From Deferrisoma camini S3R1 (GTDB taxonomy: Bacteria; Desulfobacterota; Deferrisomatia; Deferrisomatales; Deferrisomataceae), in contig NZ_JAFN01000001.1 in NCBI RefSeq assembly GCF_000526155.1, positions 112,824-144,823 of the forward strand: 32,000 bases of DNA, read 5' to 3'. Positions within the stretch are counted from its first letter, which is position 1. Each line of letters starts with the position of its first letter. The notes under the pieces were generated by a model. That model was not told where the DNA came from, did not search any database, and was given only the letters and a program-made list of their open reading frames with translations. The translations under genes and the position numbers were made by a program. Shown here piece after piece: positions 14,729 through 32,000 of the stretch.

Positions 14729-14745
14729 GGCCGCGGGCGCCGGCC

Positions 14746-15921
14746 ATGTTCCTGCCCCTCTTCTACACCCTCAAGGCCCTGGGGGTGCCGGTGAGCCCCA
14801 CCGAGTGGCTCGCCCTGACCGAGGCCCTGGCCAAGGGGCTGCACCGGGACAGCCTGACCGACTTCTACTACCTGGCCCGCAGCCTCCTGGTGAAGGACGT
14901 GGCCCACTACGACGCCTTCGACCAGGCGTTCGCCCACTGCTTCCGGGGGGGCGGCCTGCCCGACGACCTGGCCACCAAGGAGCAGATCCTGGAGTGGCTG
15001 TCCGATCCCCGGTCGCCCCTGCGGCTCCCGCCCGAGGAGCTGGAGCGGATGCGGCGCCTCAGCCTGGAGGAGCTGCTGCGGGAGCTGGAGGACCGGCTCC
15101 GCACCCAGAAGGAGGCCCACCACGGGGGCCACCACTGGATCGGCACGGGCGGCACCAGCCCGTTCGGCAGCCGGGGCAGCCACCCCAGCGGCATCTCGTT
15201 CGACCCGGAGGGCGGGGGAGGGGGGGGCGCCGTGCTCCAGGCGTTCCAGCGCAGGTACCGAAACCTGCGCAACGACCTCACGCTCGACGTGCGCCAGATC
15301 GGGGTGGCCCTGAAGAAGCTCCGGGACCTCCGGCACACGGGCAGCGAGGAGGTCTTGGACGTGGAGGCCACCATCGACCGCACCTGCCGCAACGCCGGCG
15401 AGATCGAGCTGGTGTTCACCCGCGAGAGGGAGAATCAAGTGCGGCTGCTCCTGGCCATGGACACGGGCGGGTCCATGGAGCCGTACCGGGAGCTGTCGGA
15501 GCGGCTGTTCTCCGCGGCCCACGGCATCAACCACTTCAAGGACTTCCGAGCCTTCTACTTCCACAACTGCATCTACGAGAACCTGTACGTGGACCTGGAG
15601 GCCGACGAGTTCGTGCCCACCGACGATGTGATCCGGGAGTACGGCCGGCGCTACCGGCTGATCATCGTGGGCGATGCGGCCATGGCCCCCTATGAACTGC
15701 TGATCCCCAACGGTACGCTGGAGCGGATGCGTCGCTCCAACGTCAAGGGCATCGACCGCCTGCGGGCCCTGGCCGAGGCGTTCCCCAAGCGGGCCTGGCT
15801 CAACCCGATCCCGGAGGACTCGTGGGGGTACTACGACACCATCGCCACGGTGGCGGGCCTGTTCCCCATGTTCCCCCTGACCCTGGAGGGGTTGGACCGG
15901 GCGGTGAAAGCCCTCCTGTAG
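14746..15921 (+). CDS. VWA-domain protein, CoxE-like partner of the MoxR ATPase
   Basis: ATG 14746 lies 17 nt after the ATPase stop, in frame with the tail of track ORF 14035..15921. MIDAS-like LLLAMDTGGSM (DxSxS variant DTGGS). The N-terminal MFLPLFYTLKALGVPVS segment is typical of the VWA_CoxE family (from memory). Confidence 0.8.
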   Translation: MFLPLFYTLKALGVPVSPTEWLALTEALAKGLHRDSLTDFYYLARSLLVKDVAHYDAFDQAFAHCFRGGGLPDDLATKEQILEWLSDPRSPLRLPPEELERMRRLSLEELLRELEDRLRTQKEAHHGGHHWIGTGGTSPFGSRGSHPSGISFDPEGGGGGGAVLQAFQRRYRNLRNDLTLDVRQIGVALKKLRDLRHTGSEEVLDVEATIDRTCRNAGEIELVFTRERENQVRLLLAMDTGGSMEPYRELSERLFSAAHGINHFKDFRAFYFHNCIYENLYVDLEADEFVPTDDVIREYGRRYRLIIVGDAAMAPYELLIPNGTLERMRRSNVKGIDRLRALAEAFPKRAWLNPIPEDSWGYYDTIATVAGLFPMFPLTLEGLDRAVKALL

Positions 15922-15952
15922 GGGGGCCGAGGCCCCGGGATCTTTTCGCAAC

Positions 15953-16174
15953 ATGCCCAAGCGTCTGTTCCTGAAAGTCGGCGACCTGGTGTACCACCGC
16001 GACTGCCGCGCCTGGGGGGTGGGCCGGGTGGTGGAGGTGCGCACCTCCACCCTCGACGGGGGGCCGTCCCTGGTGCGCATCCGGTTCCAGGACGGCCAGG
16101 AGCGCACCTTCTTCAACGACCTGTCCGAGCCCAACTGCTGCTACTACCGGGGGATCCGGTTCTACCGGGGGTGA
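15953..16174 (+). CDS. Small DUF3553-like protein (73 aa)
   Basis: GDLVYHRDCRAWGVGRVVEV resembles the G-D-x-V-x-H-x-x-W-G-x-G core of DUF3553 (from memory). Co-directional, 31 nt after the VWA gene. Good GC3. Confidence 0.5.
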   Translation: MPKRLFLKVGDLVYHRDCRAWGVGRVVEVRTSTLDGGPSLVRIRFQDGQERTFFNDLSEPNCCYYRGIRFYRG

Positions 16175-16239
16175 GCGGCGGTGGCACCGCCGCCGGGGGG
16201 CTCAATCCACGCCCTGGGCGGGTGGTAGGTGGGCCGTTC

Positions 16240-16743
16240 TCAAGCGGACCCGGGCTCCGGCAGGATCTGGTTTTGGAACTCGGCCACCACCTGCTCGCCG
16301 CGCCGCAGGAACGCCGCGGGGCATCCCCACACGTTGCACAGGGCCAGAACGTCGCTCCATCGGGGCGACGGCGTCAGGAACAGGGCCACGTACGACGCAC
16401 CGGCACGGCAGTCGTGGGGGGCGAGCACCGGAAGCTCGGCCCGACACTCCGGGCAGCAGATCCCGAGCACCGCTCCGGACCGAAACGGCGCCTCCACGAC
16501 CTTCCGCTTGTCCCCGCCGAAGGGGCTGAGGAACACCCGGCCCTCGGTCCGGCCGTCCCGGCACAGCAGGCCGATGCCCGGCCGGCCCCGGAACCTGGGG
16601 TGGTCGGGGCGGATCAAAGGGTGGCCGGCGGGGCAGTAGGCCCGCGTCACGAGGAGCTCCGGGCTGGCGTACGAAGCGTCCGAGGACGGGGAAGGGAGCG
16701 GTTCCGGAAACCGGAGTCGACCGGCTGTGTCGTAGATCCACAT
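16240..16743 (-). CDS. Hypothetical Cys-containing protein (167 aa)
   Basis: Hand-checked codons show about 89% G/C at third positions and ordinary amino-acid composition, unlike the overlapping shadow ORFs. No family recognised. No SD upstream of ATG 16743. Confidence 0.55.
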   Translation of the reverse strand: MWIYDTAGRLRFPEPLPSPSSDASYASPELLVTRAYCPAGHPLIRPDHPRFRGRPGIGLLCRDGRTEGRVFLSPFGGDKRKVVEAPFRSGAVLGICCPECRAELPVLAPHDCRAGASYVALFLTPSPRWSDVLALCNVWGCPAAFLRRGEQVVAEFQNQILPEPGSA

Positions 16744-17292: not shown

Positions 17293-18021
17293 TCAAGGGA
17301 GAAAGGGCGCAAAAGGGGTGGAGCAGGGGGGGCCGGGGGCGAACCAGAACCCTGCGAGCCGGCGATCCGGGGCCAGGTGGATCACGCTGGCCGAGGAGGT
17401 GCCGAACCGGGAGCCCGGCTCGGGGTGGATGCACAGGGGGGTGGCTTCGGGGCTGTCCCGGTCGTGATCCGCGAGGAACCGGAACATTCGGTCCGGACCG
17501 GGGTCGCCCTCCCGGGCCACCTCCTCCATCCGCCGCAGGCACCGCCGGGCCTTGGGATCGTCGGGGACCCGGAACCGGGCGTTGGTGATCACGTGACAGC
17601 CGGGGAGCAGCCGGTAGGTCTGGGTGCTCCCCGGCGCGTGGTCCACCACGTAGGCCCGCTCCGGGTCGGCGATGAGCAAGGTGTAGGCCTTGCACGCCGG
17701 GGCCACCCATTCGGCGAACCGCCGGGCCTCGTCCGCCGAGGCGTGGCGAAGGGTCTCCAGCACGACGGTGCCCCGGCTGCAGGCGCTGGGCCCCTTGGCC
17801 AGGGTGCCCTCGTGGTTGGCCAGGGTGACCAGCAGGCCCGCGTCCTGGTTCACCCCCAGCCAGGTGCCGCCGGCCACGCGGTCCCGGGGGCCCAGGATGC
17901 GGGGCGTGTCCACCAGCCGGGTAGGCGGGTCCCATGCCCGGTCCAGGTTCTCGTCGCGGTTTCCCGCGAACACCACCGGTTTGCCGTGAAACACCTGGTA
18001 CCAAAGGTGAAGGGTGCACAT
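17293..18021 (-). CDS. NRDE-family (TANGO2-like) protein
   Basis: N-terminal MC (Ntn-type Cys2), the GNRDEN motif and GGTWLGVN, all characteristic of the NRDE/DUF833 family. Confidence 0.8.
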   Translation of the reverse strand: MCTLHLWYQVFHGKPVVFAGNRDENLDRAWDPPTRLVDTPRILGPRDRVAGGTWLGVNQDAGLLVTLANHEGTLAKGPSACSRGTVVLETLRHASADEARRFAEWVAPACKAYTLLIADPERAYVVDHAPGSTQTYRLLPGCHVITNARFRVPDDPKARRCLRRMEEVAREGDPGPDRMFRFLADHDRDSPEATPLCIHPEPGSRFGTSSASVIHLAPDRRLAGFWFAPGPPCSTPFAPFLP

Positions 18022-18064: not shown

Positions 18065-19246
18065 TCAGCCGCTGCGAGCCGCCGGCGCGAGCCGGAGCCC
18101 CGAGCGCGAGAGCACCATTCCGGCCAAGAGCGTCACGCCGGCCGACACCCCGGCCGTGGCCCAGATGCCTCCCCAGGCCCAGACGGGCGCGCCGATCAGG
18201 GCCCCCACCATGCGGCCGAGCCCGAGCACCGCGAAGTACAGGCTCAGGAACGTCGCCCGGGCCCCCGGCGCCACCTCGGTGCAGACCGAGAACGAGGTGA
18301 CCACCGTGAACTCGAAGCACACGAACACGCCGTACAGGGCCCCCAGGGCCAGCGGCAGGGCCCGGACCGAGAGGGGGAGGGCCAGGTAGGCCGCGGCCGT
18401 GAGCGCGGTGCCCCAGCCCAGGGCCCGGGTGAGCCCGATGCGGTCCGACACGGCCGCGGTCAGCCCCTCGCCCGAGAGCTCGGCCAGCCCCACCACGGCC
18501 GTGGACGCGCCCAGCGCCGCCAACCCCAGGCCGAACCGGCTCTCCAGCAGGGCACCGTACACCACGAACAGGTTGTCGTTGGCCAGGCTCACGAGAAAGC
18601 CGAAGGCCAGGGCCGCCCGGGCACGGGGTTCACGCAGAACTCCCGCGGGGTTCCCCCGGCGGCCCGCACGGGAGGGGTCGGCGGCCGGCGGGAACGCCCA
18701 GGCGACCCCTGCGATGCCCAGCACCCCCAGCCCGGCCAGGAACCCGAACGCCTCGGGCCAGCCGGCCCGGTCCGCCACCCAGCCCACGACCGGGATCCCC
18801 ACCAGGGTGCTGCCGGCCCAGGCCGTCTCCACCAGCCCCACGGCCCGGCCCCTCGCCGGCAATGCCACCCGGGCCCCCACGTGGGCCTGCACGGCCGGGT
18901 CGAACACCGCCTTGCCCACGGACGCCATCAACACCCCCGCGAACACGGCCGTGTAGGTGTCGAGGACCCCCGCTGCCATGCCGGCCGCGGTCAACGCCAT
19001 GCCCGCCAGGAGCAGCACCCGCGGGCCCCTGCGGTCTGCCAACGGTCCGGCAACCGGCCCCAGCAGGGCCGCGAGCTGGGACGCCGCGATCATGGCGGTG
19101 ATCCCGGCCAGGGGCACGCCCAGGTGCCGGGCCAGGTCCGGGGCGAACGGGTAGGGCAGCCGCCGGGCCGTGTTGATCACGGTGCGGGCGGCCACGGCCG
19201 TGGCCAGCGATAGGACGAGGGAAGGGGGGCGCCGCTCGGTCTCCAT
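18065..19246 (-). CDS. MFS transporter
   Basis: 393 aa with about 12 hydrophobic segments. MFS loop 2-3 motif GPLADRRGPR. Confidence 0.8.
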   Translation of the reverse strand: METERRPPSLVLSLATAVAARTVINTARRLPYPFAPDLARHLGVPLAGITAMIAASQLAALLGPVAGPLADRRGPRVLLLAGMALTAAGMAAGVLDTYTAVFAGVLMASVGKAVFDPAVQAHVGARVALPARGRAVGLVETAWAGSTLVGIPVVGWVADRAGWPEAFGFLAGLGVLGIAGVAWAFPPAADPSRAGRRGNPAGVLREPRARAALAFGFLVSLANDNLFVVYGALLESRFGLGLAALGASTAVVGLAELSGEGLTAAVSDRIGLTRALGWGTALTAAAYLALPLSVRALPLALGALYGVFVCFEFTVVTSFSVCTEVAPGARATFLSLYFAVLGLGRMVGALIGAPVWAWGGIWATAGVSAGVTLLAGMVLSRSGLRLAPAARSG

Positions 19247-20120: not shown

Positions 20121-20981
20121 TCACATGTTGCACAGCTCTTTTGCGTAGACGTCTCCATCCAGCACGATTTCGGTGATCTCGCCCGTGGGTTGCTGCACGT
20201 AGACCTGTGCCGTGCCCTGGTACCCGTCCGAGGTCTGGTAGTAGATCGTTTGGCCTTGCACGGAGTAGGTGCCCGAGTCCTGGGCCCCTCCGCCGTAAAA
20301 CGTGCCGGCGGACCCGGACGAGTACGTCTCCCCGCCCAGGCTCCACCGGCCCTGGCCGTCGAAAGAGATGGACGTCATCTGGCCATACGTGCCCCCGATG
20401 CTCGATCCGGAAAAGTGGCAGAACGTGCCGTAGAGGAGGGCCGTGTCCGCTCCGCCAGGTTGCACACCGGTACCCCCCGAGGATTGCCCGGACCCGCCTT
20501 CGTTCCGCTGACACGAAAAGGTCGATCCGTCCGAATAACGGAACACGAGGGTGGTGTCCGTAAGGGTGTCCACCTGGTACGTGCCTTGCCCACCGCTGCC
20601 GCTCACGACCAACTGCCCGCCCCCGGTCAACTGATAGTTCCACGTGCCCTGCGCGGTCTGGAACAGCCCGTCCGCCGTGAAGGTGAGGCTCCCCTGCCCG
20701 GCAGGCGTTCCGTCGTAGGCGGTCATCTGGCACGTCCACGTGCCCACGATGGAGGCCGGGCCGCCGCCCCCTCCCCCTGACGTCCCGCCGCTTCCGGTTT
20801 CGGTGCTTCCCCCATCCCCCCCGGATTGATCGCCCGAGGCCAGCGCCCCGCCGGAACCGCTTCCGCCGGTGTCCCCCGCGCCGCCCCCCCCACCCCCTCC
20901 ACCGCCGCAGGCTGCGCCCCCCAGGACCAGCAGCCCGCCCACAGCACAGATCGTCAGAAGAGAGATCAGCCTCCCGTTCAT
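20121..20981 (-). CDS. Probable lipoprotein with a long Gly/Ser linker and two lipocalin-like beta domains (last gene of the operon)
   Basis: ATG 20981 is preceded by GAGGAGGTG. Signal plus Cys (LLVLGGAAC) is followed by about 60 aa of G/S/D-rich linker. GTWTCQ...GTWNYQL...LVFRY resembles short lipocalin-like domains. Confidence 0.7.
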   Translation of the reverse strand: MNGRLISLLTICAVGGLLVLGGAACGGGGGGGGGAGDTGGSGSGGALASGDQSGGDGGSTETGSGGTSGGGGGGPASIVGTWTCQMTAYDGTPAGQGSLTFTADGLFQTAQGTWNYQLTGGGQLVVSGSGGQGTYQVDTLTDTTLVFRYSDGSTFSCQRNEGGSGQSSGGTGVQPGGADTALLYGTFCHFSGSSIGGTYGQMTSISFDGQGRWSLGGETYSSGSAGTFYGGGAQDSGTYSVQGQTIYYQTSDGYQGTAQVYVQQPTGEITEIVLDGDVYAKELCNM

Positions 20982-21001
20982 CTCGCACCTCCTCTTGTTG
21001 A

Positions 21002-24000
21002 TCATCGTGGGGTGAAGCGGAACATGAGATCTCCCTTGCTCTGTTGGAGAATGCCGTAGAGCGGCCCCAGGGCCCGGGTGATGGAGACGAAGTTGCCCGC
21101 GCCGTCCGAGATGCCCGAACCGCGGTCCTCGATGCCGGTTCCGTCAAGGCGGACGTAGATGAACGCGATGGTTCCATCGGGGTAGAGGCGGGCACCGAAC
21201 GTGTTGAAGTCGCTGTCCGCTCCCTCCTGGGCCTTGGTCTCCACGTCCACCCACCACACCGCCACGTAGGCGTTCGAGCCTTCCTGGTGCACGCGCACCT
21301 CCCCGGCGTTGTACGCGGAGAAGTCCCCGTTCTCCACCGCGATGGCCGGCCCGGTGCTTTCGAGGTCGAACCCCGGCCCCGGCGGGCTGCTCCGGTCGCC
21401 GAGCCAGATGTTCCCGTTGTCGTCCACGGTGATCCGGGTGTACCCCGTTCCGAAGAACGGAAACGTCCAGGGCAGATCGTAGGTCACGGTGCATTCGTCG
21501 CAGGACGAAAGGCTCTCAACCACGGGAGCGGACTCGTCCCCCGCAGGGGCGGTGCTGCCGGTCACCGAGTAGGCCGGTTGGGCCGAGTCGTCCATGGCGG
21601 TGCCGGCCATGGTCTCTTCCCAGTCCCCCACTCCGTCCCGGTCGGTGTCGTCCCGGTAGGAGTTGGTGCCCGTGTCCCCATGGTGCCGGTACGCTCCCGT
21701 GCCGGTCTCGCGGAGGTCTGCCAATCCGTCTCCGTCGTAATCCGTGTCGTGGTCCGGGTAGATCCACAGGCCCGAGCGGCTGGATCCGGCCTCGGGCCCC
21801 ACCACGGCGAGTTCGCCCCCGGCGCCGGGCAGGACGTGGCGGGGGGTGAGGCCCGTGCCGAGCCCGGACCAGGTCTGGCCCGAGTCGGTGCTCGTGAACA
21901 CGTCGGACCCGCCGGCCAGGTAGAGATCCCCGGACTCGGTCACGGCCAAGTCGTGTACGTACTCCTCGGCCGAAACGTCGGTCCACGTGCCCCCGCCGTC
22001 CTCGGTGTAGAACACCTGCCAGCACCCGCTCGCATACACCCGGTCCGCGTCCAGGCCCACCACGTGGAAGGTGGACGTCTGGGCGCACGAATCCCTTCCG
22101 GGCGGGCTCACGTCCTGCCACGTGTCGCCGCCGTCGGCGCTCTTGAGGACTTTCCAGTTGCCCCCACCCGCCTCGATGGCGTAGACCGCGGACCCGGATC
22201 CCCACAGGTCGTAGATCCGGGTGCTGGTGCTCCCCTGGTAGACCACCGCCCAGGTCTGGCCGCCGTCGGCGCTCCGGGCGATCATGGCGGGGTAGTACCA
22301 CGAGTACCAGTTATAACGCCCCCCCACGAACACCGTGGTTCCGTCGGGGGTCCACACGCACTCGAGCAGCCCGTTGTTCACCGAAACCGGAAGCTGGGCC
22401 CAACTTGCGCCCCCGTCCGTGGTTTTCTCGACCTGCCCCGCGTAAACGGCCACGTACACGGTCTGGCCCGCGCCCCACACGTCCATGGCGTGGCCGTCGA
22501 TCTCGTGGGCGCTCCACGTCATCCCCCGGTCGGTGGTGTGGAGCGCGGCCGTGGGCCAATCGTACGTGGCCGGGCCCCACCCGCCGACCAGGTAGAGGTC
22601 GTCCAGGCCGGTGCCCCACACGGCCCAAGCCTTGTGGCCGGGCGACAGCGGTCGGTACCCGAAGCCGGGGCTTGGCGGCGAGACGGCGATCGGGACGGCC
22701 ACCTGCACCGTGGAATCGGCGTTGCTCGTGGCGACGAGATTCACGACGCAGTCCTGCCCCGGGCTGCCGGCCGTGTACGTGCCCGTGGCCTCGTCGAACG
22801 CCCCGATCTCTCCCCCGCAGTCGCCGTCCGCGTCGGTCAACTCCCAGGTGACCGAGGTGTCCAAGGTCCCGGCAACCTCGGCGGTGAACACCTGCTCGGT
22901 GCCTCCCGGCCGGGCGGCCGCATCCGGAGTGATGGAAACCCTCACGGGAACGTCGATCAGGATCGTAACGCTCCTCGAAACGGTGGGGTCGGCGTTGCTC
23001 GTGGCGGTGAGCACCACGTCGCAGTCTAAGTCGGGCTCCCCGGCCGTATACGCGCCCGTGGCCTCGTCGAACGCCCCGATCTCCCCCCCGCAGTCGCCGT
23101 CCGCGTCGGTCAACTCCCAGGTCACCGAACGGTCCAACGCGTTCCACACCGTGGCGGAAAACGCCCGTTGCTCACCGGGAGAGAGGGTGAGCGGGGTAGC
23201 ACCGGGGATCAGCCGCATGGAAACGGGCAGTCCCGCGCGCTCCAAGGCCGCGGCCCGCACCTCTTCGTCCCCCCGGTCCGCCCCGAACACGTACGGGCCG
23301 AGCACGGCCAGGCCGTCGCCGTCGTTGGAACCCAGGCTCGCCGCGGCGGTCCATTCGGCGGTGTCCGGATCCAGCAGGAACACCTCCTGGCCGGTGGCGG
23401 CCGCGATCTTTCCGGATGCGGCATCCCAGCCGAGGCCTCCGAACGAGGGGTCGTACGCGGCATAGTCCAGGGTCTGGGTCACCTGCCCCGTCTGGGGATC
23501 GATCCGGAAGATCGCGTCCTGCCCCGGGTCGGAGACCCACACGTGGCTTCCGTCCCAGGCCAGGCCGTCGGCCCACTGCACCCCCTGGGCCGTCAGGTCC
23601 AGCGCTTCCAACTGCTGGCCCGTTGTGGTCAGGCGGTACAACCATCCGGATGCCGTTCCCACCCACAGGTAGGGGCCGCCCGCGGTGTCCGGGTCGTACG
23701 CCAACCCCCTCGGTATCCCGTCCAGCCCGCTCAGCCGGAAGCACTCCTGCACGTTGCCGTGCACGTCCACCCGGAACACGGTGCCGTCGTCGTCCAGAAT
23801 CCACAGATCGGACACACCATCGCTGGCCATGCCCACGGGGTCACGCGCGTCCGCGTCGGTGCACAGGTCCGGGTTCGAGACCGAGGGAAAGTTGTTCGTG
23901 TCGAACCACCCGTCGAACAGCACGATCTGGGCCGTGGCGGACACGGACGGGTCGGTTGCCAGGCGCGCAGTCAGGCTGGCCTGGTCTCCGTCCCACGGGA

Positions 24001-25099
24001 CGCTGTCCGGCGCCGTGTACAGGCCGGATCCGTCCACCGCGCCCGGATCCCCTTCGCCCAGGAGCCACTCCACCGCGCCCGAAGGGTCTCCCTGAACGGT
24101 TGCCGAAAACTGCCTGGACGTGCCCTCGAGCACCACTGCCAGCTCCGGCTCCACCGTGATCCCGGCGGGAACGTCCACCGTCACCACGGCCTCGGCCCAG
24201 GCCGCCCCGTCCGCCTGGCTCGTGGCCCGCACCTCCACGTCGCAGTCCTCCGCCGGGTTGCCCGCCGTGTACGCGCCGTCGGCCGACACCGTCCCGGTCT
24301 CCCCCCCGCAGTCGCCGTCCGCGTCCAACACGCTCCAGCTCACCGCCCGGTTCTCGTCCCCCGTGACCGCGGCCTCAAACGCCTGGGTGCCTCCGGCCGG
24401 CACGGTGGCCTGGGCAGGCGTTACGCTCACCTGCACCGGGGCGGCAGCCCCGGAGGGCTGCACCGTGACCACCGCTTCCCCCCGCACGGACGGGTCGACC
24501 GCGCTTGTCGCAACGACCCGCACCTGGCACTCCTCTGAAGGGTTTCCGGGGGTGTAGGTTCCGTCCGCCGACACCGATCCCGCCTCCGGCCCGCAGCTCA
24601 CGTCCTCCAGGGCCCAGGTCACCGCGGAGTCCGGCAGGGCCTCCACCTCGGCCGTGAACGAAGCCGTGCCCCCGGCCTCCACGGTGGGCACCGGGGGGGC
24701 CACCGTGACCGAGGCCAGATCCTCCAGGGGAATGCGCACCGAGACCCTGGAACCTGCATACAGGTACTCCACCACCGTTGTCCCCCGCATCCGGAGGATC
24801 TCACCGGCGAACACCTCGGCCGAGAAGGTCCGGTCCGGTCCGGCCTGGACCGTGAGCACCACCGGCGTGCCGTCCAGGGGCACCTCGGCCGACACGGGGT
24901 CCATCCCTTCGGCCGCGCAGGTCACGGTGATCCGGGTGATGCCCGCCGGGAGCCCGGCAACCGCCCCGGCGGCCCGCGGTGCGCTGCGGGCGTGCAGGGA
25001 AACCACCACCCGCGCGGTGCCGTCGCCCGGGCCTGCGCCGCACCCGGCCAGGCCCAGCAACCCCGCTGCTGCGGCTGCGAGTCGGCGCCAGCGCCTCAT
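21002..25099 (-). CDS. 1365-aa mosaic lipoprotein: N-terminal beta domain, 3 Big_2-like, NHL-like propeller, 2 Big_2-like, BNR/Asp-box propeller, TSP3-like Ca sites, unknown C-terminal domain
   Basis: Canonical lipobox LLGLAGC (Cys20). Ig-like repeats at about aa 128-395 and 628-806. Propeller-like repeats at aa 420-615. Six S/T-x-D-x-G-x-T/S-W Asp-boxes: TTDRGMTW, TTDGGASW, SADGGQTW, SADGGDTW, TEDGGGTW, STDSGQTW. DTDYDGDGLAD and DTDRDGVGD calcium-type motifs. SD GGAGGTG upstream. Confidence 0.85.
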   Translation of the reverse strand: MRRWRRLAAAAAGLLGLAGCGAGPGDGTARVVVSLHARSAPRAAGAVAGLPAGITRITVTCAAEGMDPVSAEVPLDGTPVVLTVQAGPDRTFSAEVFAGEILRMRGTTVVEYLYAGSRVSVRIPLEDLASVTVAPPVPTVEAGGTASFTAEVEALPDSAVTWALEDVSCGPEAGSVSADGTYTPGNPSEECQVRVVATSAVDPSVRGEAVVTVQPSGAAAPVQVSVTPAQATVPAGGTQAFEAAVTGDENRAVSWSVLDADGDCGGETGTVSADGAYTAGNPAEDCDVEVRATSQADGAAWAEAVVTVDVPAGITVEPELAVVLEGTSRQFSATVQGDPSGAVEWLLGEGDPGAVDGSGLYTAPDSVPWDGDQASLTARLATDPSVSATAQIVLFDGWFDTNNFPSVSNPDLCTDADARDPVGMASDGVSDLWILDDDGTVFRVDVHGNVQECFRLSGLDGIPRGLAYDPDTAGGPYLWVGTASGWLYRLTTTGQQLEALDLTAQGVQWADGLAWDGSHVWVSDPGQDAIFRIDPQTGQVTQTLDYAAYDPSFGGLGWDAASGKIAAATGQEVFLLDPDTAEWTAAASLGSNDGDGLAVLGPYVFGADRGDEEVRAAALERAGLPVSMRLIPGATPLTLSPGEQRAFSATVWNALDRSVTWELTDADGDCGGEIGAFDEATGAYTAGEPDLDCDVVLTATSNADPTVSRSVTILIDVPVRVSITPDAAARPGGTEQVFTAEVAGTLDTSVTWELTDADGDCGGEIGAFDEATGTYTAGSPGQDCVVNLVATSNADSTVQVAVPIAVSPPSPGFGYRPLSPGHKAWAVWGTGLDDLYLVGGWGPATYDWPTAALHTTDRGMTWSAHEIDGHAMDVWGAGQTVYVAVYAGQVEKTTDGGASWAQLPVSVNNGLLECVWTPDGTTVFVGGRYNWYSWYYPAMIARSADGGQTWAVVYQGSTSTRIYDLWGSGSAVYAIEAGGGNWKVLKSADGGDTWQDVSPPGRDSCAQTSTFHVVGLDADRVYASGCWQVFYTEDGGGTWTDVSAEEYVHDLAVTESGDLYLAGGSDVFTSTDSGQTWSGLGTGLTPRHVLPGAGGELAVVGPEAGSSRSGLWIYPDHDTDYDGDGLADLRETGTGAYRHHGDTGTNSYRDDTDRDGVGDWEETMAGTAMDDSAQPAYSVTGSTAPAGDESAPVVESLSSCDECTVTYDLPWTFPFFGTGYTRITVDDNGNIWLGDRSSPPGPGFDLESTGPAIAVENGDFSAYNAGEVRVHQEGSNAYVAVWWVDVETKAQEGADSDFNTFGARLYPDGTIAFIYVRLDGTGIEDRGSGISDGAGNFVSITRALGPLYGILQQSKGDLMFRFTPR
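22766..23125 (-). repeat. Intragenic tandem duplication of one Ig-like domain (91-codon period) with near-identical 87-nt cores
   Basis: The cores at 23039-23125 and 22766-22852 encode VTWELTDADGDCGGEIGAFDEATG(A/T)YTAG. They differ at only a few bases and are offset by exactly 273 nt. Confidence 0.85.
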
Positions 25100-25118
25100 G
25101 GTCCACCTCCGGAACTCG

Positions 25119-25973
25119 TCACTGGATGGGGTTTTTCTTCCCGCCTCCCGGCCCGGGGACCGGCAGCGGTCCGGGAGGCGCCCCGGTCGCGCCGGGAGGC
25201 AGCGGTTCGACCGACGGGCCCGTCGCCGGCAACCGGAGACCGGTGCCGGTTTCCATGGTCTCGCCTTCCCGGGAACGCCCCGGCGAAGGGAGTCTCTCGA
25301 TCCTCCCCACCCACACCGGCCCCGCGCGCGCCGGCCCCACCACGAACGAGAACCAGGCCCCGTCCACCGGGTCGGCGCCCGGGATCTCGGGAAACCGGAA
25401 CCGGATCCGCCCGTCGGAGTGCTCCTCGAATTCGGTCACCTCGAACTCCCGGCCGTCCTCCAACTCCACCTGCACCCGCCCCGCGCACCCAAACCCCTCT
25501 CCCTCCAGCACGATCCGCTCCCCGCCGCGGAACCCTTGGGCCAAGCCTATCGGGTCTGTTGCGCGAATCTCGGGGTTGGCCCGGTCCACCTGGAGGAAGG
25601 ACACCACCCGGCCCTGCTCCACCGTGACGTCCCAATAGGCCGGGACGTACCCGGCCGGCGATCCGCACGGCGCGATCCGCCAAGCCCCTTCGGGCAGGAC
25701 CACCCGGTACCGGCCCGCCTTGTCGGCCTGAACCTCGCGGTACCCGCCCCCGCCGGCCGGCCGGCCCGGGCGCCAGACCCGCACGGTGACCCCGGCGGCA
25801 GGGCTACCGTCCGCCTGCCGAACCGTGCCCGAAACCCACACCCCGCTCTCCTGTGCGCCGCCCGATCCGTTCCCCCCGATCCCGATGGCCCGTAGCCCCG
25901 GAACCGCGGCCTGGGCGCTCCAGACCGCTAACACGAACATTCCCGTCAGCACCGAACCGCACCGGCGGATCAT
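25119..25973 (-). CDS. Secreted protein with CarboxypepD_reg-like and IPT/TIG-like beta domains and a Pro-rich tail
   Basis: ATG 25973 overlaps the upstream stop (ATGA) and is preceded by GGAGGA. Signal peptide MIRRCGSVLTGMFVLAVWSAQA. VSGTVRQADGSPAAGVTVRVW...ADKAGRYRVVLPEG is CarboxypepD_reg-like. ERIVLEGEGFG...RFRFPEIP is IPT/TIG-like. The upstream part of track ORF 25119..26495 is a shadow. Confidence 0.7.
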   Translation of the reverse strand: MIRRCGSVLTGMFVLAVWSAQAAVPGLRAIGIGGNGSGGAQESGVWVSGTVRQADGSPAAGVTVRVWRPGRPAGGGGYREVQADKAGRYRVVLPEGAWRIAPCGSPAGYVPAYWDVTVEQGRVVSFLQVDRANPEIRATDPIGLAQGFRGGERIVLEGEGFGCAGRVQVELEDGREFEVTEFEEHSDGRIRFRFPEIPGADPVDGAWFSFVVGPARAGPVWVGRIERLPSPGRSREGETMETGTGLRLPATGPSVEPLPPGATGAPPGPLPVPGPGGGKKNPIQ

Positions 25974-26914
25974 GGCTTTCCTCCATCGGGCCGGGGGGAC
26001 CAGGCCACCGGCCCGGAGGGGTCGGACAGGATCCCCCTCCGGTACAGCGCCCTCACCCGGTACCAGCACGTCCCCGTCGGGGGTGCTTGCCGATCCTCGA
26101 AACGGGGCTCTTCCAGCACTCCCGAGATCTTCACGAACCCCCCGTCCCGGGACCATGCCCGGTACACCACGTATCCCCTGAGGTCCGGGGAGTCCACGGC
26201 GCGCCACGTGAGCGCGGGCCCCTCCGTTCCCTTCCGAACCGAAAGCCCCTGGGGAGGTCTGGGCTCGACGCGGGCCCAGGCCCGGGCCGAGCGGGGCCGG
26301 GAACGGGCGCTCTCGTTCCCCGACCGGTCCACCGCGCTCACGGCGTACCGGTACAGGCGGCCGCCCAGGACCGAGGTGTCGTCGTAGGCCCGCGCCCGCA
26401 GGGGCTGCCCGGTGAGCCGGGCGAACTCTTCCGACGGGCTTTCCGCCCGGTACACGTGGAAGCCGGCCACGTCCGGGTCGGCCGGGGGGCTCCACTGAAC
26501 CCGGATCCGCCCCTCCAGCACAGAGAGCCCGGTGATCACCGGCCGGGCCGGCGGCCGGTGATCCGGGGGTTCGTACCCCACGGGCTTCGAAAGGGCGCCC
26601 GCGGCGCCCCCCGGCCCCAGGGCCGCCACCCAGTAGCGGTACGTGTACCCCGCGGCCAATGGCACCCGGTCCACGTACCGCTGCCGGGCCCGGTCCGAAG
26701 GGGGAACCCGGGCCACCAGGGCCGGCGGGTTTCCGGCCACGGCCCGGTACACCCGGTACTCCAGCACCGGCCCGGCCACCGACTGCCAGGTCACAGACAC
26801 CCGGCCGTCGTCGAGCCGCTCCACCCGGAGGTCCTCAGGGGGAGCCGGTTTGGGTTCTGCCCCCCAGACGGTGGCCGCCCACACGGCCGCAACCAGCACG
26901 GTCCACCGAACCAT
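25970..26914 (-). CDS. Secreted protein with three fibronectin type III domains
   Basis: Signal peptide MVRWTVLVAAVWAATVWG. Three repeats of P-P-x-L...V-x-W...Y-x-V-Y-R...Y-x-Y/V-x-A/V...S. The start lies 3 nt after the giant-gene stop. Confidence 0.8.
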   Translation of the reverse strand: MVRWTVLVAAVWAATVWGAEPKPAPPEDLRVERLDDGRVSVTWQSVAGPVLEYRVYRAVAGNPPALVARVPPSDRARQRYVDRVPLAAGYTYRYWVAALGPGGAAGALSKPVGYEPPDHRPPARPVITGLSVLEGRIRVQWSPPADPDVAGFHVYRAESPSEEFARLTGQPLRARAYDDTSVLGGRLYRYAVSAVDRSGNESARSRPRSARAWARVEPRPPQGLSVRKGTEGPALTWRAVDSPDLRGYVVYRAWSRDGGFVKISGVLEEPRFEDRQAPPTGTCWYRVRALYRRGILSDPSGPVAWSPRPDGGKP

Positions 26915-26917
26915 GGG

Positions 26918-29900
26918 TCACTCCATCTGGATGCCGCAGGTGAGATCCTGCCGGCACAGTTCGCCAAAGGGGTCCTCCTCGGCCCAGCCTCCCCACTCGC
27001 CCACCTCTGCAACCTCGACGCCCCCAATGGTACCGTCTTCTCGGAACCACAGTTTGGTGGCCGGATCTCCGGGGAGGGGGTACGGAGGCGGCTCCTCCTG
27101 GCCGGGGGACGGGGTCAGCACGCCTATGTACACCTCGCGGGGCGCAAAGTAGACCCAGAACGTGTTCTGAACGACCGGCGCGTCTACAAGATACCGGGCC
27201 TTGATCCCCGGCCCTCCTGGCCCGTTGTACACCTGGACGCCGGCCAGCATGTCGTTGCGGACGGTGAGATCCCCGAATGTGCCCTCCACGTAAGGCCGGG
27301 CGCACATTCCCCCCGACCGGCTCGAGAGGGCTGCGCCCAGGGTGGCACCGATGTTCATCTCGATCCGGACCGGCCACTCCACGGCAATGGGCACCACCTG
27401 GGCGTTGACCGCGAGCCCGAAGCCCATGTTGCTCCCCCACCGCCACAGCCGGCCCTCGCCGCCGATGTTGACTCCTCCGGGGAAGGGCAGCAGACCGGCT
27501 CCCGGCGGGAAGAAGGGCACTCCCGCCGTGAGCGCGGAGCACAGTTCCCCGTTCAGGTACTCTCCGCTGTCCTCGTTCAGGTTCACCCGGCCCCGGAGCA
27601 CGAACTTCCCCAACTCGAAGCCGAAGTACTTCGTCAGGCTGGTGAGCAGGAACTCGTTGTCCTGGGGGCCGAGCTTGGCGTCCACGCGGCTTGCGTGCCG
27701 GAAGACCTGGGCCCCTGCGTTCACCCACCACTCGCCGGTGTCGCCGAAGTAGCGGCTGAGGGTTTCGGTTTCGGGCACGCCGGAGCCCATGCGGATGGTC
27801 AGGTAGGTGTCCGACGGCTCGAACGGGCTGTCCGGCCAGAAGGTGTCCGCCTTGTACAGGATCTGGGCCGCAGTCGCGCCCAGCACGGGAAACTCCAGGT
27901 TCCCCACCAGACTCAGGTAGTTGTCCAGGCTTCCGTCCGGGCGCAGCGCGCCGACCCAGCCGCCCGCCACCCCGCTGAACCCGGTACCGCCCAGGGACCG
28001 GTCGCCCAGGGGGCTTTGGGTCAGGACCGTCTCCCCGGGGTTCTCGAACTCCGGCACGCTCTCGGCCAGGGCGGCCAGCCGGCCGGTCACCCACCGGGCC
28101 ACGTCGATCCCGGCCACGATCTGCCGGAAGTAACCTTTCGGGACCGAGATCCAGTCGGTCCGCTCCATCTTTTCCCGATCGAACACGAGCCACCCGCCCT
28201 CGGCCTCTTCGAACGGCGCGGTCTGGAGCCAGCCCCATTCCCACTCGGGGTTCGCGGCGTTTTCGATATGGTTGCTGCGGGACTCCTGGAAGTCCTGCCG
28301 CTCGCCGGCCGCCACCTCGGCCGCGAACACCGCTCCGATGCGCAGTTCCTCCAGCACCGCCAGGATCACGTTGGTCAACCCGTCCCAGCAGCGGTCCGGA
28401 GCGAGCACCAGGAGCCCGCCGGGCCCGGCCGGGGTGCCCGGCGGGCAGGCCCCGGCCAGCAGGTCCAAAAGGCGGGAAAGAAACGGATCGTTCAGCGCCT
28501 CCACCTTGCGCACCACGGCGTCGAACACGGCCTTGGCCGTGCGGGGCGCGGTCATGCCCACCTCCAGGAGATCGGCATCCCCCCGGATGAGGTGCTTGAG
28601 ACCGGTGTTCCCCGCACGAACCGGCCCGTTGCCGTAGTCCACGGTCTCCGGGCCCTCCCACACAACCTCGAGGGCGTTGGCCAGGTCCGGCTCCTGGCCG
28701 GCCAACTCCTCGGCCGCCCGAACCGCGTTCACCAGCATCTGGGCCGCGAACTCCAGATCGCTTTGCATCTCCTGCACATTCCCGAGGCCGCGCACGAACG
28801 CCCCCACGGCCGTGTCATCCTCCGGAAGGCCCTCGGGTTCGGGGCACGAGGCGGTCAATGCCCCCGAAAAGATCACGTTGAACAGGCCTGCGGCCACGTT
28901 CAGCCCGGCCTGGGGCAGGGTCTCCTGGCTCTCGAGCAAGTCCGGAGCACGGGCCAGCTCGATCCCGGCCGCCAGGGGCAGGAGCGAAAGCCCCGGCGGG
29001 ACGTCCCCGCCGGCATGCCGGTTCAGTATGCAGGTGAGCTCGGGTGCCCCCTCGGCCCGGGCGAGCTGTTCCAGCAGGGGGAGGGCCGCCTCCGCACCGG
29101 CGCCCTGCCCGGCACCGGATGCGGTCTCGACCAGGGCCGGGGCCTGGGCCACGGCCCATCGGTAGAGGTCTCCCTCCAGGGTGCCCTCCTCGAACACCGT
29201 GGCCCCCAGGCCGGCGAGGATCACGGCCCAGGCCGGCGCATCGGGCTGGCTCGATGCCATCGCCTGTCCCAAGGCGACGGCCAATTCGTCGCTCCACCGG
29301 GCCAGCCAGCCCATGACCCTGCCCGCCTCTTCCGGAACCCCGGCCCGGTTGCGAAGCTCCTCCAGCGCGTCACCGAGGAGCCGGGCCAACTCCGCCACGA
29401 GCGCGGCGGTTTCGGGTTGGCTCGCCTGCTCGTACAGCACCGCGGCCACCACCAGGGCGGCCTGCGCTGCCTTCTGAGCCGCCCGGGCCGCGGGGGTGTC
29501 GGGCTCGCCCAGGGCCTCGAGGATCTCGCCCAGCGCCCGGGCCGCCTCTGCCGGGGTCATGGGCTCCCCGCGCAGGTCCCCCCGCAGGAACGCCCGCACC
29601 GCAGCCCGGACCCGCTCCCGCTCGGGCTCCTCCAGCCGCTTGCCCGTGAAGGCGTAGGAGGCCGAACTGGCCGCCTGGGCCACGAGTCCGGGCAGGTGGG
29701 TCCGGGCCGCGCCCACCGGGTCGGCCAGGACCTGCAGGGCACCCCGCACCGCCTCCCGGACCGGCTCGCCGGCCCGGTCGCCCCACTCCTCCGTCAGGGC
29801 CTGGGCCACGTTCCCGGCGGCGGCCAGGCCCAGCTCGTGGCGTTGGGCGTTCACCACCCCCTCCGGCGGAACCTTCAGCACCGCCTCGGCCACCAGCTCG

Positions 29901-32000
29901 AGGCCCCGGGGGCGGGACGGGCCCGTCCCGCCCAGGGCCTGGCGGACCCTCAGGAGCGCCATCGCCACCAGGTCGGCCGGGCTCGCGTGCGGGGCCTCGC
30001 CGGCCAGTTCCTCGGCCAGGAACCGCTGCCACTGGCGCGATTGCGAGAGCGATCCGGCCTCCCCGGCCAGCGCGAACCGCCGATCCAGTTCCTCGGCGCC
30101 GGAGGCGGGCTCGCGCACCAGGGCTCCCACCCCTGAGGCTGCGGCCCGCCGGAGCCGTTCGGCCACGTCCGGCGCCTCCAGCCGTTCGGCCAGGTCCGCC
30201 AGGGCCACGGCCTCGCGCACGGTGTCGTAGTCCGGATCATCCCCGAGCCGGCCGGCCAGAAGATCCGCGGCCCGGGCCAGGAACCGCTTGCGCGGCTCGC
30301 GAGCGATGCGGCCGAGCAGGACATCGTGCTCCAGAAGGACCCATCCGCGCTCGCCCCGGCCGGGCTCGCCCCGGCGGTTCATGCGGTCGGACTCGGACAG
30401 CATGTCCAGGGCCAGTCCGATAAACGCGTCGAAGCTCTGGCCATCCACCTCATGACCCGGGGCGAGCACGGCCCGCGCCTGGGGATTGGCCGGGGCGAGC
30501 TCGGCCACCACATCCAGTGCCCAGCCCAGCTCACGGGGGGTTGCCTGGCCCGGCAGGGACGGATCGTCCACGGACACGGCCACCCGGCCGGCCATGAGGT
30601 CGAAGTTGGAGGCCGCATTCTGGAAGTCGGGGTCCTGCCAGGCCAGAAATCCCATGGTGCGGTGATAGGCCCGGGCCGCCCGGAGCACCGCCACCAGGTT
30701 GGCGAGGGTGTTATGCTGCGTCAGGTCGTTGATCCGGTTGAGGAGCACCCGGCTCAGGGCCGCCTGGCGCGCCGTCAACTCGCCCGTACCGAACGCCTCG
30801 GGAACCTCCATGCCGGCGCTGCGGAGCTGCTCCACCACCTGGGCGAACTCCTCCACCAGCGACTGGATCTCCTCGTCCTCGGGCGCGCCGGCCAGGTCCT
30901 GGAGCAGGGCCTGCCACAGGTGCTCCAGCAAGTCCCGGGCCTCGTCCGGCGAGATCACCTCGCCCACAGGCCGGCCCGTGCGGGCGGCGAACCGGAGGAG
31001 CCGCAGCAGCTCCCGGGCCTGCTGCCGGCTGAGGCCGCCCCCGCCGCTGTGGCAGGTCAGGCACCCGGGCGCGGGCCCGGTGGTCTGGGCTGCGGACCGC
31101 ATGGCATCGCCCACGGCCTGGGCCGGGGAGCGCCCTCCCACGCCCGCGGCGGCCAGCTTTTCGTGCACGTCGGAGAGGGCCCGGAACCAGACCGTGGTTT
31201 CCCGGTCCCCACCGCGCACCGCCTCCACCAGGGCGTCCACCTCCTCGTCCAGGCAGTCCCTGAAATTCGCGAGCCCAGCATCGATCGCCCCCCCGCTCAC
31301 GCCCGCCACCTCCAGGTTGCGCAGGGTGTCTCTCACCCGCAGGGCCTCCTCGAGCGCGGCGAGCAGGCTGCGGCGAGTCCCGGGGTTCCCCAGGGCCTCC
31401 CGGCCCAACTTCGCACACTCCAGGGGTTGGAGAACCCTTTGTTGTGCAAGGTTGGCCGCATCCAAGACGATCCCGAGCCATTCCTCCTGGCTCGGGCCCC
31501 CTTGGATCTGCCGGCGGGAGTTGTCGGCCGCTTGCTGGGCCACCCTGAGGAGGGTGCGCAGGGACAAAGGATGGTCCGGATTCTCCCCGGCCCAGTCCTT
31601 TGCTTTGACAATGCGGTCGTACAGGCGCTTGGCCTCCTCGGCGGTCTCCGGCTGGACCGCGGGAACCCAGTACCCGACGAGCGAGGCGTCGGCGAACTCG
31701 GCAAGGTCGTCCTGTTGCTCGCGGAACAACTCGATCGCTTGCTCCGCCGCCAACTGGCACCCGGTGTCCTCCCCCCCCCAGGTGCGCCAACCCATGAGCT
31801 CGATGCGCTCGCAGTACTTGAGCAGCGACCCCAGTGTCTCCTTGCGCTGCTCGTGCGTCATGGTTTGCGCTTGACCCTGGTAGCGCTCCACCATCCGCCG
31901 CACCAACAGGTCCTGGCGATGAAGCAAGGCCCGGAGCCGCGCCGAGGCGTCTCGGGAAAGCCTTCCGTAGAGCAGCGAGCCGCCCTCCCCGAACTCAGGC
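26918..32000 (-). CDS. Giant protein of unknown function (at least 1693 codons; frame still open at the window edge)
   Basis: The track ORF starts at TTG 31927, but the frame has no stop from 31928 to 31999 and no SD precedes the in-window starts. Ordinary amino-acid composition with G/C-rich third positions. About 1215 aa are Ala/Leu/Glu/Arg-rich and predicted helical. About 445 aa at the C-terminus are Gly/aromatic-rich and beta-like. No family recognised. Confidence 0.8.
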   Translation of the reverse strand, partial: PEFGEGGSLLYGRLSRDASARLRALLHRQDLLVRRMVERYQGQAQTMTHEQRKETLGSLLKYCERIELMGWRTWGGEDTGCQLAAEQAIELFREQQDDLAEFADASLVGYWVPAVQPETAEEAKRLYDRIVKAKDWAGENPDHPLSLRTLLRVAQQAADNSRRQIQGGPSQEEWLGIVLDAANLAQQRVLQPLECAKLGREALGNPGTRRSLLAALEEALRVRDTLRNLEVAGVSGGAIDAGLANFRDCLDEEVDALVEAVRGGDRETTVWFRALSDVHEKLAAAGVGGRSPAQAVGDAMRSAAQTTGPAPGCLTCHSGGGGLSRQQARELLRLLRFAARTGRPVGEVISPDEARDLLEHLWQALLQDLAGAPEDEEIQSLVEEFAQVVEQLRSAGMEVPEAFGTGELTARQAALSRVLLNRINDLTQHNTLANLVAVLRAARAYHRTMGFLAWQDPDFQNAASNFDLMAGRVAVSVDDPSLPGQATPRELGWALDVVAELAPANPQARAVLAPGHEVDGQSFDAFIGLALDMLSESDRMNRRGEPGRGERGWVLLEHDVLLGRIAREPRKRFLARAADLLAGRLGDDPDYDTVREAVALADLAERLEAPDVAERLRRAAASGVGALVREPASGAEELDRRFALAGEAGSLSQSRQWQRFLAEELAGEAPHASPADLVAMALLRVRQALGGTGPSRPRGLELVAEAVLKVPPEGVVNAQRHELGLAAAGNVAQALTEEWGDRAGEPVREAVRGALQVLADPVGAARTHLPGLVAQAASSASYAFTGKRLEEPERERVRAAVRAFLRGDLRGEPMTPAEAARALGEILEALGEPDTPAARAAQKAAQAALVVAAVLYEQASQPETAALVAELARLLGDALEELRNRAGVPEEAGRVMGWLARWSDELAVALGQAMASSQPDAPAWAVILAGLGATVFEEGTLEGDLYRWAVAQAPALVETASGAGQGAGAEAALPLLEQLARAEGAPELTCILNRHAGGDVPPGLSLLPLAAGIELARAPDLLESQETLPQAGLNVAAGLFNVIFSGALTASCPEPEGLPEDDTAVGAFVRGLGNVQEMQSDLEFAAQMLVNAVRAAEELAGQEPDLANALEVVWEGPETVDYGNGPVRAGNTGLKHLIRGDADLLEVGMTAPRTAKAVFDAVVRKVEALNDPFLSRLLDLLAGACPPGTPAGPGGLLVLAPDRCWDGLTNVILAVLEELRIGAVFAAEVAAGERQDFQESRSNHIENAANPEWEWGWLQTAPFEEAEGGWLVFDREKMERTDWISVPKGYFRQIVAGIDVARWVTGRLAALAESVPEFENPGETVLTQSPLGDRSLGGTGFSGVAGGWVGALRPDGSLDNYLSLVGNLEFPVLGATAAQILYKADTFWPDSPFEPSDTYLTIRMGSGVPETETLSRYFGDTGEWWVNAGAQVFRHASRVDAKLGPQDNEFLLTSLTKYFGFELGKFVLRGRVNLNEDSGEYLNGELCSALTAGVPFFPPGAGLLPFPGGVNIGGEGRLWRWGSNMGFGLAVNAQVVPIAVEWPVRIEMNIGATLGAALSSRSGGMCARPYVEGTFGDLTVRNDMLAGVQVYNGPGGPGIKARYLVDAPVVQNTFWVYFAPREVYIGVLTPSPGQEEPPPYPLPGDPATKLWFREDGTIGGVEVAEVGEWGGWAEEDPFGELCRQDLTCGIQME

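Follow-up and report, generated by a model that had tools for sequence, protein, structure and literature searches.

A rare, conserved envelope gene cluster around a giant secreted protein in Deferrisoma camini, and its proposed docking at an outer-membrane barrel

Known barrel systems and the Deferrisoma cluster

LptD-LptE, of the lipopolysaccharide machinery, combines an N-terminal periplasmic beta domain and a barrel of ~26 strands with a small lipoprotein of 150-190 aa, and in MtrAB(C) the large barrel MtrB sheathes its partner and is paired with a surface lipoprotein. The ushers FimD and PapC carry, on a large barrel, a periplasmic N-terminal domain that could recruit substrate. In two-partner secretion, autotransporter and TamA-TamB systems a barrel gene lies beside the gene of a very large exported partner. 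Giant adhesins (LapA/BapA, SprB and arrays of Big or immunoglobulin (Ig)-like domains) are exported proteins of several thousand residues that begin with Ig- or FN3-like domains and are accompanied by accessory genes. How does a gene cluster of Deferrisoma camini S3R1 that is built around a secreted giant protein compare with these systems? We analysed a stretch of 32,000 nt (NCBI RefSeq assembly GCF_000526155.1, contig NZ_JAFN01000001.1, positions 112,824 to 144,823 of the forward strand; the window), which holds five tightly packed minus-strand open reading frames (ORFs) at 20121-20981, 21002-25099, 25119-25973, 25970-26914 and 26918 to beyond 32000, the last being the 3' part of the giant gene. 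Judging from gene order and orthology, these five genes are the downstream part of a rare, conserved envelope gene cluster, best read as a previously undescribed barrel-anchored or barrel-exported giant-protein assembly.

The full order in this species runs from a BTAD/TPR regulator through an outer-membrane protein of ~740 aa, a lipoprotein of ~150 aa and the secreted giant of ~4,610 aa to an FN3 protein, a CarboxypepD_reg protein, a Big_2/propeller lipoprotein and a lipocalin-like lipoprotein. The original prediction, made from the window, described a five-gene operon. This unit has to be redrawn: the operon does not begin in the window, the conserved set comprises six genes (barrel, lipoprotein, giant, FN3, CarboxypepD_reg and Big_2), all of whose products carry a Sec or lipoprotein signal, and the fifth gene of the window, the lipocalin-like one, is seen only in this species.

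Two further loci share the order barrel, lipoprotein, giant, FN3, CarboxypepD_reg, Big_2. L003, of 38% G+C, encodes proteins of 741 aa and 160 aa, the giant, and proteins of 537 aa, 383 aa and 457+ aa; L005 (GCA_964429585.1) encodes proteins of 749 aa and 166 aa, the giant, and proteins of 549 aa (fn3), 271 aa (CarboxypepD_reg) and 1,035 aa (Big_2). At L004, in a "Deltaproteobacteria" metagenome-assembled genome (MAG), the giant is followed by a 561-aa fn3 protein, with no further genes of the set adjacent; L008, L009, L010, L013 and L014 show barrel, lipoprotein and giant. Barrel and lipoprotein genes stand upstream of the giant in 8 of the 9 loci that show upstream DNA, this species included, and the order barrel, lipoprotein, giant holds in all eight barrel-bearing loci with enough context (counted from L003, L005, L008, L009, L010/L011/L012, L013 and L014). 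Downstream, the order giant, FN3, CarboxypepD_reg, Big_2 is kept in unrelated lineages, with orthologues 36-42% identical in the best-resolved comparisons. Co-occurrence of the families in synteny, proposed earlier as a check, is thereby found in unrelated genomes (L003 and L005), except for the lipocalin-like fifth gene. Synteny and orthologues also support the earlier picture of one exported assembly around the giant, in that the genes are a conserved unit with a real giant; the exact five-gene set does not survive.

We found ~22 barrel-family members and a handful of giants, in uncultured hosts that are mostly Deltaproteobacteria-type or Deferrisomatales MAGs, and we found no description of this cluster in the literature. 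On sequence evidence the cluster appears strange, well conserved and rare, and its role in an assembly is a proposal. Could it be no system at all, with unrelated exported genes lying side by side, or a giant ORF that is an artefact of high G+C? Long spurious ORFs are common at ~70% G+C, and the window, at ~71%, holds many. However, the arrangement recurs with true orthologues in genomes of 38% to ~71% G+C, the low value being that of L003. Moreover, indels between the window and the closely related contig L002 are in frame, the G+C content at third codon positions (GC3) is 0.89, and the giants are collinearly conserved over >4,000 residues. We regard this explanation as hardly credible, and synteny and orthology already contradict it.

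Among the known systems, LptD-LptE and MtrAB are the closest architectural analogies, a resemblance in possible working and not in family membership. As in LptD-LptE, a periplasmic beta domain and a ~26-strand barrel go with a small lipoprotein, whose gene here directly follows the barrel gene. Unlike LptE, the lipoprotein of the cluster is an Ig-like domain paralogous to the N-terminus of the giant, and the co-encoded partner is a protein of 4,600 aa, not lipopolysaccharide machinery. The host clade is cytochrome-rich, which recalls MtrAB(C), but the partner is not a multihaem cytochrome and the barrel bears two Ig-like N-terminal domains. In contrast to FimD and PapC, there are no chaperone or pilin genes, and the substrate would be one giant non-repetitive protein instead of polymerising subunits. 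The giant differs from the partners in two-partner, autotransporter and TamA-TamB systems in being largely helical by composition, with a cleavable signal peptide, and POTRA, ShlB, TPS, autotransporter, AsmA and DUF490 domains are absent here. Unlike the giant adhesins, it is without internal repeats, RTX motifs, genes of a type I secretion system (T1SS) or the C-terminal domain of a type IX secretion system (T9SS).

The cluster maps to no characterised system, and every test for membership in the systems that follow came out negative. With respect to T1SS/RTX, no giant homologue has a HemolysinCabind Pfam match, and T1SS neighbours are lacking in the window, L003, L005, L009, L010 and L013. 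For two-partner secretion, POTRA/ShlB profiles match 0 of 22 barrel members and the giant N-termini show no two-partner secretion (TPS) domain; for chaperone-usher systems, no usher or PapD profile matches, and the barrel model is without a plug-sized insert or C-terminal domains. LptD and OstA profiles match none of the 22 barrel members. There is no MtrB_PioB match, and the partners are without haem motifs apart from one clade-specific CLTCH. Tc/Rhs systems gave no Pfam matches, with 0-2 occurrences of the YD-like motif Y.Y[DN] per giant, and no type V autotransporter profile matches the giants. On the five window proteins there is no Por_Secre_tail/TIGR04183 match, in Pfam or NCBIfam, that would mark T9SS cargo. 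Searches for alpha-2-macroglobulin found neither A2M profiles nor a C[GLA]EQ motif, and BiPBP_C matches were insignificant (E 0.012-0.058). For AsmA/TamB there were no AsmA or DUF490 profile matches; the signal peptide of the giant looks cleavable and its composition is helix-rich. The original prediction had set the locus apart from T1SS/RTX, Tc/Rhs, usher and Sus systems, and rightly so, since Pfam and NCBIfam searches, motif counts and barrel profiles leave none of them applicable.

The giant, the barrel and the lipoprotein

The 3' 37% of the giant gene lies at 26918..32000 on the minus strand. Its frame meets no stop before the window ends, and the 1,693 aa that it encodes there are the C-terminal part of the ~4,610-aa secreted protein. 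A scan of one genome per species yielded contig JALUTY010000131.1 (L002), which is 97-99% identical to the window at the DNA level, with the same five genes; its giant ORF spans 3,362 aa and reaches the start of the contig without closing. Two contigs of the same species, L010 and L011, the latter from the same Joint Genome Institute (JGI) metagenome as L002, carry the start of the gene, and the L010 fragment ends in 29 residues with which L002 begins, without a mismatch. The composite of L002 and L010 comprises 4,616 aa and starts with MLRRFLGFLGLCLLAARPGPAAAA before VELE, a signal peptide; the window therefore holds roughly residues 2918-4610 of the giant. The giant gene of the GXP50 MAG falls into two calls at L001:3458-3502, where 43 nt stand against 51 nt in the window, probably as the result of an assembly frameshift.

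Relatives of the giant are few. Word-indexed searches returned one fragment each, and the one that covered 5.8 billion proteins found a single partial relative, P0001, in a hydrothermal "Deltaproteobacteria" MAG. When the last 1,200 aa were run by index-free HMMER against 1.84 billion representatives, four proteins came up: a 412-aa fragment and the homologues P0003 (4,550 aa), P0004 (4,188 aa) and P0005 (4,643 aa). The latter three align collinearly with the composite along their entire length, and signal peptides are present on all of these full-length homologues (3/3). A metagenome scan with the C-terminal alignment re-found only the L002 contig.

Neither the giant nor its homologues have matches in Pfam, NCBIfam or PDB sequences, profile searches of the PDB from the alignments of giant and barrel yielded no significant match, and self-BLAST detected no internal repeats. 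Across four full-length and two partial giants, where aligned, 305 positions are invariant; Gly, Leu and Pro account for most of them, and ten are Cys and only two His. The protein is very acidic, with a net charge of about -215, and has no clearly hydrophobic 19-residue window (maximum Kyte-Doolittle mean 1.59). By composition, beta-rich and helix-rich blocks alternate; the giant is largely alpha-helical overall, with a beta-rich C-terminal end, and helix-rich sequence without a known domain makes up more than half of it. The earlier description of beta-rich proteins does not extend to the giant itself, apart from this end. HExxH and thioester motifs are absent from all six giants, as is CxxCH bar the clade-specific CLTCH. 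With no repeats and no catalytic motif, and with such a charge and such a set of invariant Gly, Leu, Pro and Cys residues, the giant looks structural, not catalytic. Residues ~1000-1250 (L010:~15700-16460) form a Gly/Pro/Ala-rich low-complexity insert of ~250 aa with a duplicated GTAGYGVDMAGP unit; it is poorly conserved in the distant homologues, as composite positions 1001-1200 hold 0 invariant residues.

Alignment and conservation profile delimit a conserved C-terminal module at 26921..29002 on the minus strand (window residues ~1000-1693). Its beta-rich last ~350 aa close with Cys pairs and a WGGW that is invariant, and the module is the only part that HMMER matched to P0003-P0005, at 29-33% identity. 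The extreme C-termini read ...GIQME, ...LEGR and ...EVCR, and only that of P0004 is aromatic (...EPPY): an aromatic C-terminal beta-signal is absent from the giants of the window species, P0003 and P0005, and P0004 ends in Tyr. Could the giant carry the effector of a system for toxin secretion or contact-dependent competition? Two-partner and Tc/Rhs systems are established cases of giant exported proteins that have an outer-membrane partner of their own, and the middle region of the giant contains short YD-like hairpins. Yet the C-terminal module is conserved instead of polymorphic, no immunity-like small gene follows the giant, RHS, TPS, POTRA and toxin domains are absent, Y.Y[DN] occurs at most twice per protein, and PADLOC gave 0 matches. 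This makes a toxin system very unlikely. PHROGs returned generic FN3/Ig matches only.

At 31049..31063 on the minus strand, the giant contains CLTCH, which has the form of a c-type haem attachment site and is also present in L002 and P0001. In distant homologues its place is taken by a Cys pair of the type CxxxxC or CxxxxxC, and haem binding is for this reason at most a feature of the clade; as a family-wide feature it was rejected. Directly upstream of the barrel, a co-oriented set of genes is found in the same species (L010:1752-9872) and also at L008:151-5893. It encodes a porin-like protein of 446 aa (ending ...VTVRF), a cytochrome of 324 aa in which CxxCH occurs 12 times, a protein of 140 aa with a single CxxCH, an MtrC/MtrF-like cytochrome of 1,006 aa in which the motif occurs at least 7 times, and the BTAD/TPR regulator of 705 aa. 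By its motifs, this set looks like a porin-cytochrome conduit, and it occurs only in this clade.

Might the acidic giant and its partners then keep the cell, or its cytochromes, in contact with metal oxides, as an accessory to extracellular electron transfer or to mineral contact, a role on which the original prediction had speculated? In this species and in the GXP50 MAG, the porin-like protein and the 12-haem, 1-haem and >=7-haem proteins are encoded immediately upstream and on the same strand, CLTCH is kept within the clade, and a net charge as negative as that of the giant would fit. However, cytochrome neighbours and CLTCH are both missing in L003, L005, L009, L013 and L004, whose neighbours are unrelated, and acidity is common among exported proteins. 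We consider such a role improbable.

The ~740-aa protein encoded upstream of the giant has a signal peptide, a beta-rich N-terminal part and a C-terminal half of alternating strands, and its C-terminal ends are aromatic (...FGF, ...ETEW) or Ile (...FGI). A profile search assembled a family of 22 members, including one from the MAG of P0001 and one annotated Deferrisomatales; 0 of the 22 match a Pfam barrel family. AlphaFold2 modelling from the 22-sequence alignment predicts two N-terminal beta-sandwiches followed by ~26 long antiparallel strands, with a predicted local distance difference test score (pLDDT) of 80. When this model was compared with the PDB by Foldseek, 296 matches reached E <= 0.001, and the 50 listed at the top are large outer-membrane barrels without exception. 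Among the listed structures, MtrB (6r2q_B) has the best template modelling (TM) score, at 0.44/0.47; FimD/PapC reach 0.29-0.38 (E about 1e-8), a generic similarity of fold, and LptD 0.22-0.25, and TonB-dependent transporters and SlpA are also present. Signal peptide, strand model and aromatic C-terminal end together place the protein in the class of outer-membrane beta-barrels. The original prediction saw no transport or secretion core, because the window ends before the barrel and lipoprotein genes; beyond its edge, the same species encodes this ~26-strand barrel and a lipoprotein directly before the giant, and the claim falls.

The ~150-aa gene that follows the barrel encodes a lipoprotein with a single domain. 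Its counterpart is the first domain of the giants, at residues ~40-153, with an identity of 37-50% (E 1e-18 to 1e-35). P0004, the only giant without an adjacent barrel or lipoprotein gene, is also without that first domain. We considered homology between the N-terminal domains of the barrel and the lipoprotein/first-domain family, and rejected it: the hhalign probability is 23%, and only an EPGxH strand is shared.

A docking model and its alternatives

What could such a set of proteins do? We propose that, after Sec export, the barrel and its lipoprotein would form an outer-membrane station, which would dock the giant through its first domain. The station might either tether the giant under the outer membrane or thread it to the cell surface, and the FN3, CarboxypepD_reg and Big_2 proteins would assemble on the giant as binding or scaffold partners. 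Taken as a whole, with the giant at the surface or beneath the membrane, this model is one that we hold to be somewhat more probable than improbable. The most likely role is that of a cell-surface or envelope contact structure. A narrower version envisages a hitherto unrecognised outer-membrane pathway, for export or anchoring, that is dedicated to one giant: the lipoprotein would cap or occupy the ~26-strand barrel, the paralogous N-terminal domain of the giant would replace it or pair with it, and the giant would be threaded out or locked to the surface with its FN3, CarboxypepD_reg and Big_2 partners. We put this version forward tentatively, as a possibility that we would not expect to hold.

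Several observations count against the docking model. Genes for an energy source or a chaperone that could translocate a protein of 4,600 aa are missing from the vicinity. In the P0004 lineage, the giant and the FN3 gene persist with no barrel beside them, and the barrel may therefore not be essential. The overlap that joins L010 to L002 measures only 87 nt, and barrel and lipoprotein are tied to the window via contigs of the same species. An AlphaFold2 model of the C-terminal 594 aa of the giant, from five sequences, has a pLDDT of 38 and is unreliable. Finally, fold types such as FN3, Ig and propeller say little on function.

Does the giant cross the outer membrane at all? In a purely periplasmic complex it would not: the lipoprotein and the periplasmic domains of the barrel would hold it as an envelope-spanning or sub-membrane scaffold, and the barrel would be an anchor and not a channel. 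The Ig-like domains of the barrel precede its first strand and would face the periplasm by the usual topology of even-stranded barrels, and it is there that the lipoprotein and the first domain of the giant would meet. The missing energy source and the long helical regions of the giant, which would be hard to thread through a pore, point the same way. On the other hand, a barrel of ~26 strands is larger than an anchor needs, and the barrels of this size that have been solved, such as LptD, MtrB and ushers, surround a partner or let one through. Moreover, FN3, Big_2 and propeller proteins are the partners here, and the L005 orthologue of the Big_2 lipoprotein bears a choice-of-anchor Q domain, which by family definition marks surface proteins. 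We therefore rate a complex confined to the periplasm as unlikely, although as less so than a role in mineral contact.

If the docking model is true, the cluster would add a new solution to the problem that a very large envelope protein poses for diderm bacteria. Both the barrel family and the giant family escape Pfam, NCBIfam and PDB sequence searches, and a repeat-free giant of 4,600 residues without a recognisable domain opens a wide, unexplored region of fold space. Since the lipoprotein is paralogous to the first domain of the giant, docking can be framed as a concrete, testable hypothesis. The rarity of the cluster and its uncultured hosts, among those found, limit the impact.

Accessory proteins, gene junctions and neighbours

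Directly after the giant, at 25970..26914 on the minus strand, lies the gene of an exported protein of 314 aa with three FN3 domains (fn3 at 2e-13). Its signal, from the translation, is MVRWTVLVAAVWAATVWG before AEP, and an exact-sequence look-up gave no record. The protein is 36-39% identical to its orthologues at L003, L005 and L004, with an invariant PDxxPPxxPV linker, and BLASTP against the L003 orthologue gives 2e-65. The next gene (25119..25973, minus strand) encodes an exported protein of 284 aa in which a CarboxypepD_reg-like domain and a further beta domain precede a Pro/Gly-rich tail; its signal, again from the translation, is ...FVLAVWSAQA before AVP, and its orthologues at L003 and L005 are 25-36% identical. 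One relative has a second CarboxypepD_reg-type lipoprotein gene ~800 nt upstream of its barrel gene (L013:8197-9207), whose product aligns weakly (31%) with the 284-aa protein.

The gene at 21002..25099 (minus strand) encodes a lipoprotein of 1,365 aa with the lipobox LAGC and several Pfam matches. A conserved N-terminal domain, of which ~400 aa are conserved in L005, is followed by Big_2 repeats, two propeller-like regions, Asp-rich repeats and an unassigned C-terminal domain. Identity to the L003 orthologue is 41% over the first 380 aa, and to that of L005 26% overall. The L005 orthologue (L005:24178-27285) ends in its choice-of-anchor Q domain (NCBIfam 1e-30), and matches to an SBBP-propeller and a beta-helix replace the BNR/sortilin-type propeller of the window protein. 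Between lineages, the Big_2 partner has its C-terminal modules swapped.

The last gene (20121..20981, minus strand) encodes a lipocalin-like lipoprotein of 286 aa (Lipocalin_4 at 3e-7). Its lipobox, GAAC, is weaker and less canonical than LAGC and is followed by a Gly-rich tether. The gene is present in L002 and has no counterpart after the Big_2 gene in L005. Among the four complete window products, two thus have signals of the Sec type and two of the lipoprotein type, as had been predicted. The domain names given earlier fared unevenly. Matches to fn3, Big_2/I-set and Lipocalin_4 reach the Pfam cut-offs, which bears out fn3 and Big_2; CarboxypepD_reg (1e-6) and the propeller matches of the PSII_BNR/Ycf48/Sortilin/BNR and DUF6923 types lie below the cut-offs, and neither IPT/TIG nor NHL was recovered by Pfam.

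Direct reading of the four junctions confirmed the distances predicted for them. Between the giant and the 314-aa gene, TGA (26920-26918), CCC and ATG (26914) leave a 3-nt gap; the 314-aa and 284-aa genes overlap by 4 nt in ATGA (25973-25970); TGA (25121-25119) and ATG (25099) leave 19 nt between the 284-aa and 1,365-aa genes; and TGA (21004-21002) and ATG (20981) leave 20 nt between the 1,365-aa and 286-aa genes. An alternative ATG at 21005 would instead give the 286-aa gene an ATGA overlap, but is without a Shine-Dalgarno site. A GGAG or GGAGG lies 6 nt 5' of each of the four downstream starts, in agreement with the Shine-Dalgarno sites that had been described. These ribosome-binding sites, read directly on the minus strand, are GGAG at 26921..26924 for the FN3 gene, within the last codons of the giant, and GGAGG at 25980..25984, 25106..25110 and 20988..20992 for the 284-aa, 1,365-aa and 286-aa genes. 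Simple scans, which are weak evidence, detected neither a sigma-70-like promoter, in a search of both strands, nor any terminator-like site on the coding strand. A terminator 3' of the last gene was rejected, as its fold is not significant (z = -1.3), and so was a run of nine G at 31771-31779 as a phase-variation site, since such runs are not enriched (~11 expected by chance).

The surroundings of the cluster in the window include further genes. A cytochrome P460 gene (19310-19807, minus strand; Pfam 8e-34) shares the strand of the operon, 313 nt beyond its downstream end, and is followed by genes for a major facilitator superfamily (MFS) transporter (18065-19246) and a TANGO2-like protein (17293-18021). 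A MoxR-type AAA ATPase (13826-14728) and an ORF with a CoxE-like von Willebrand factor A (VWA) domain form a MoxR-VWA pair at 13826-15921 on the plus strand. At 261-1196 on the plus strand, beside IspG and ProS, a multihaem cytochrome with five Paired_CXXCH_1 units (Pfam 8.5e-42) is encoded, which confirms a cytochrome-rich host.

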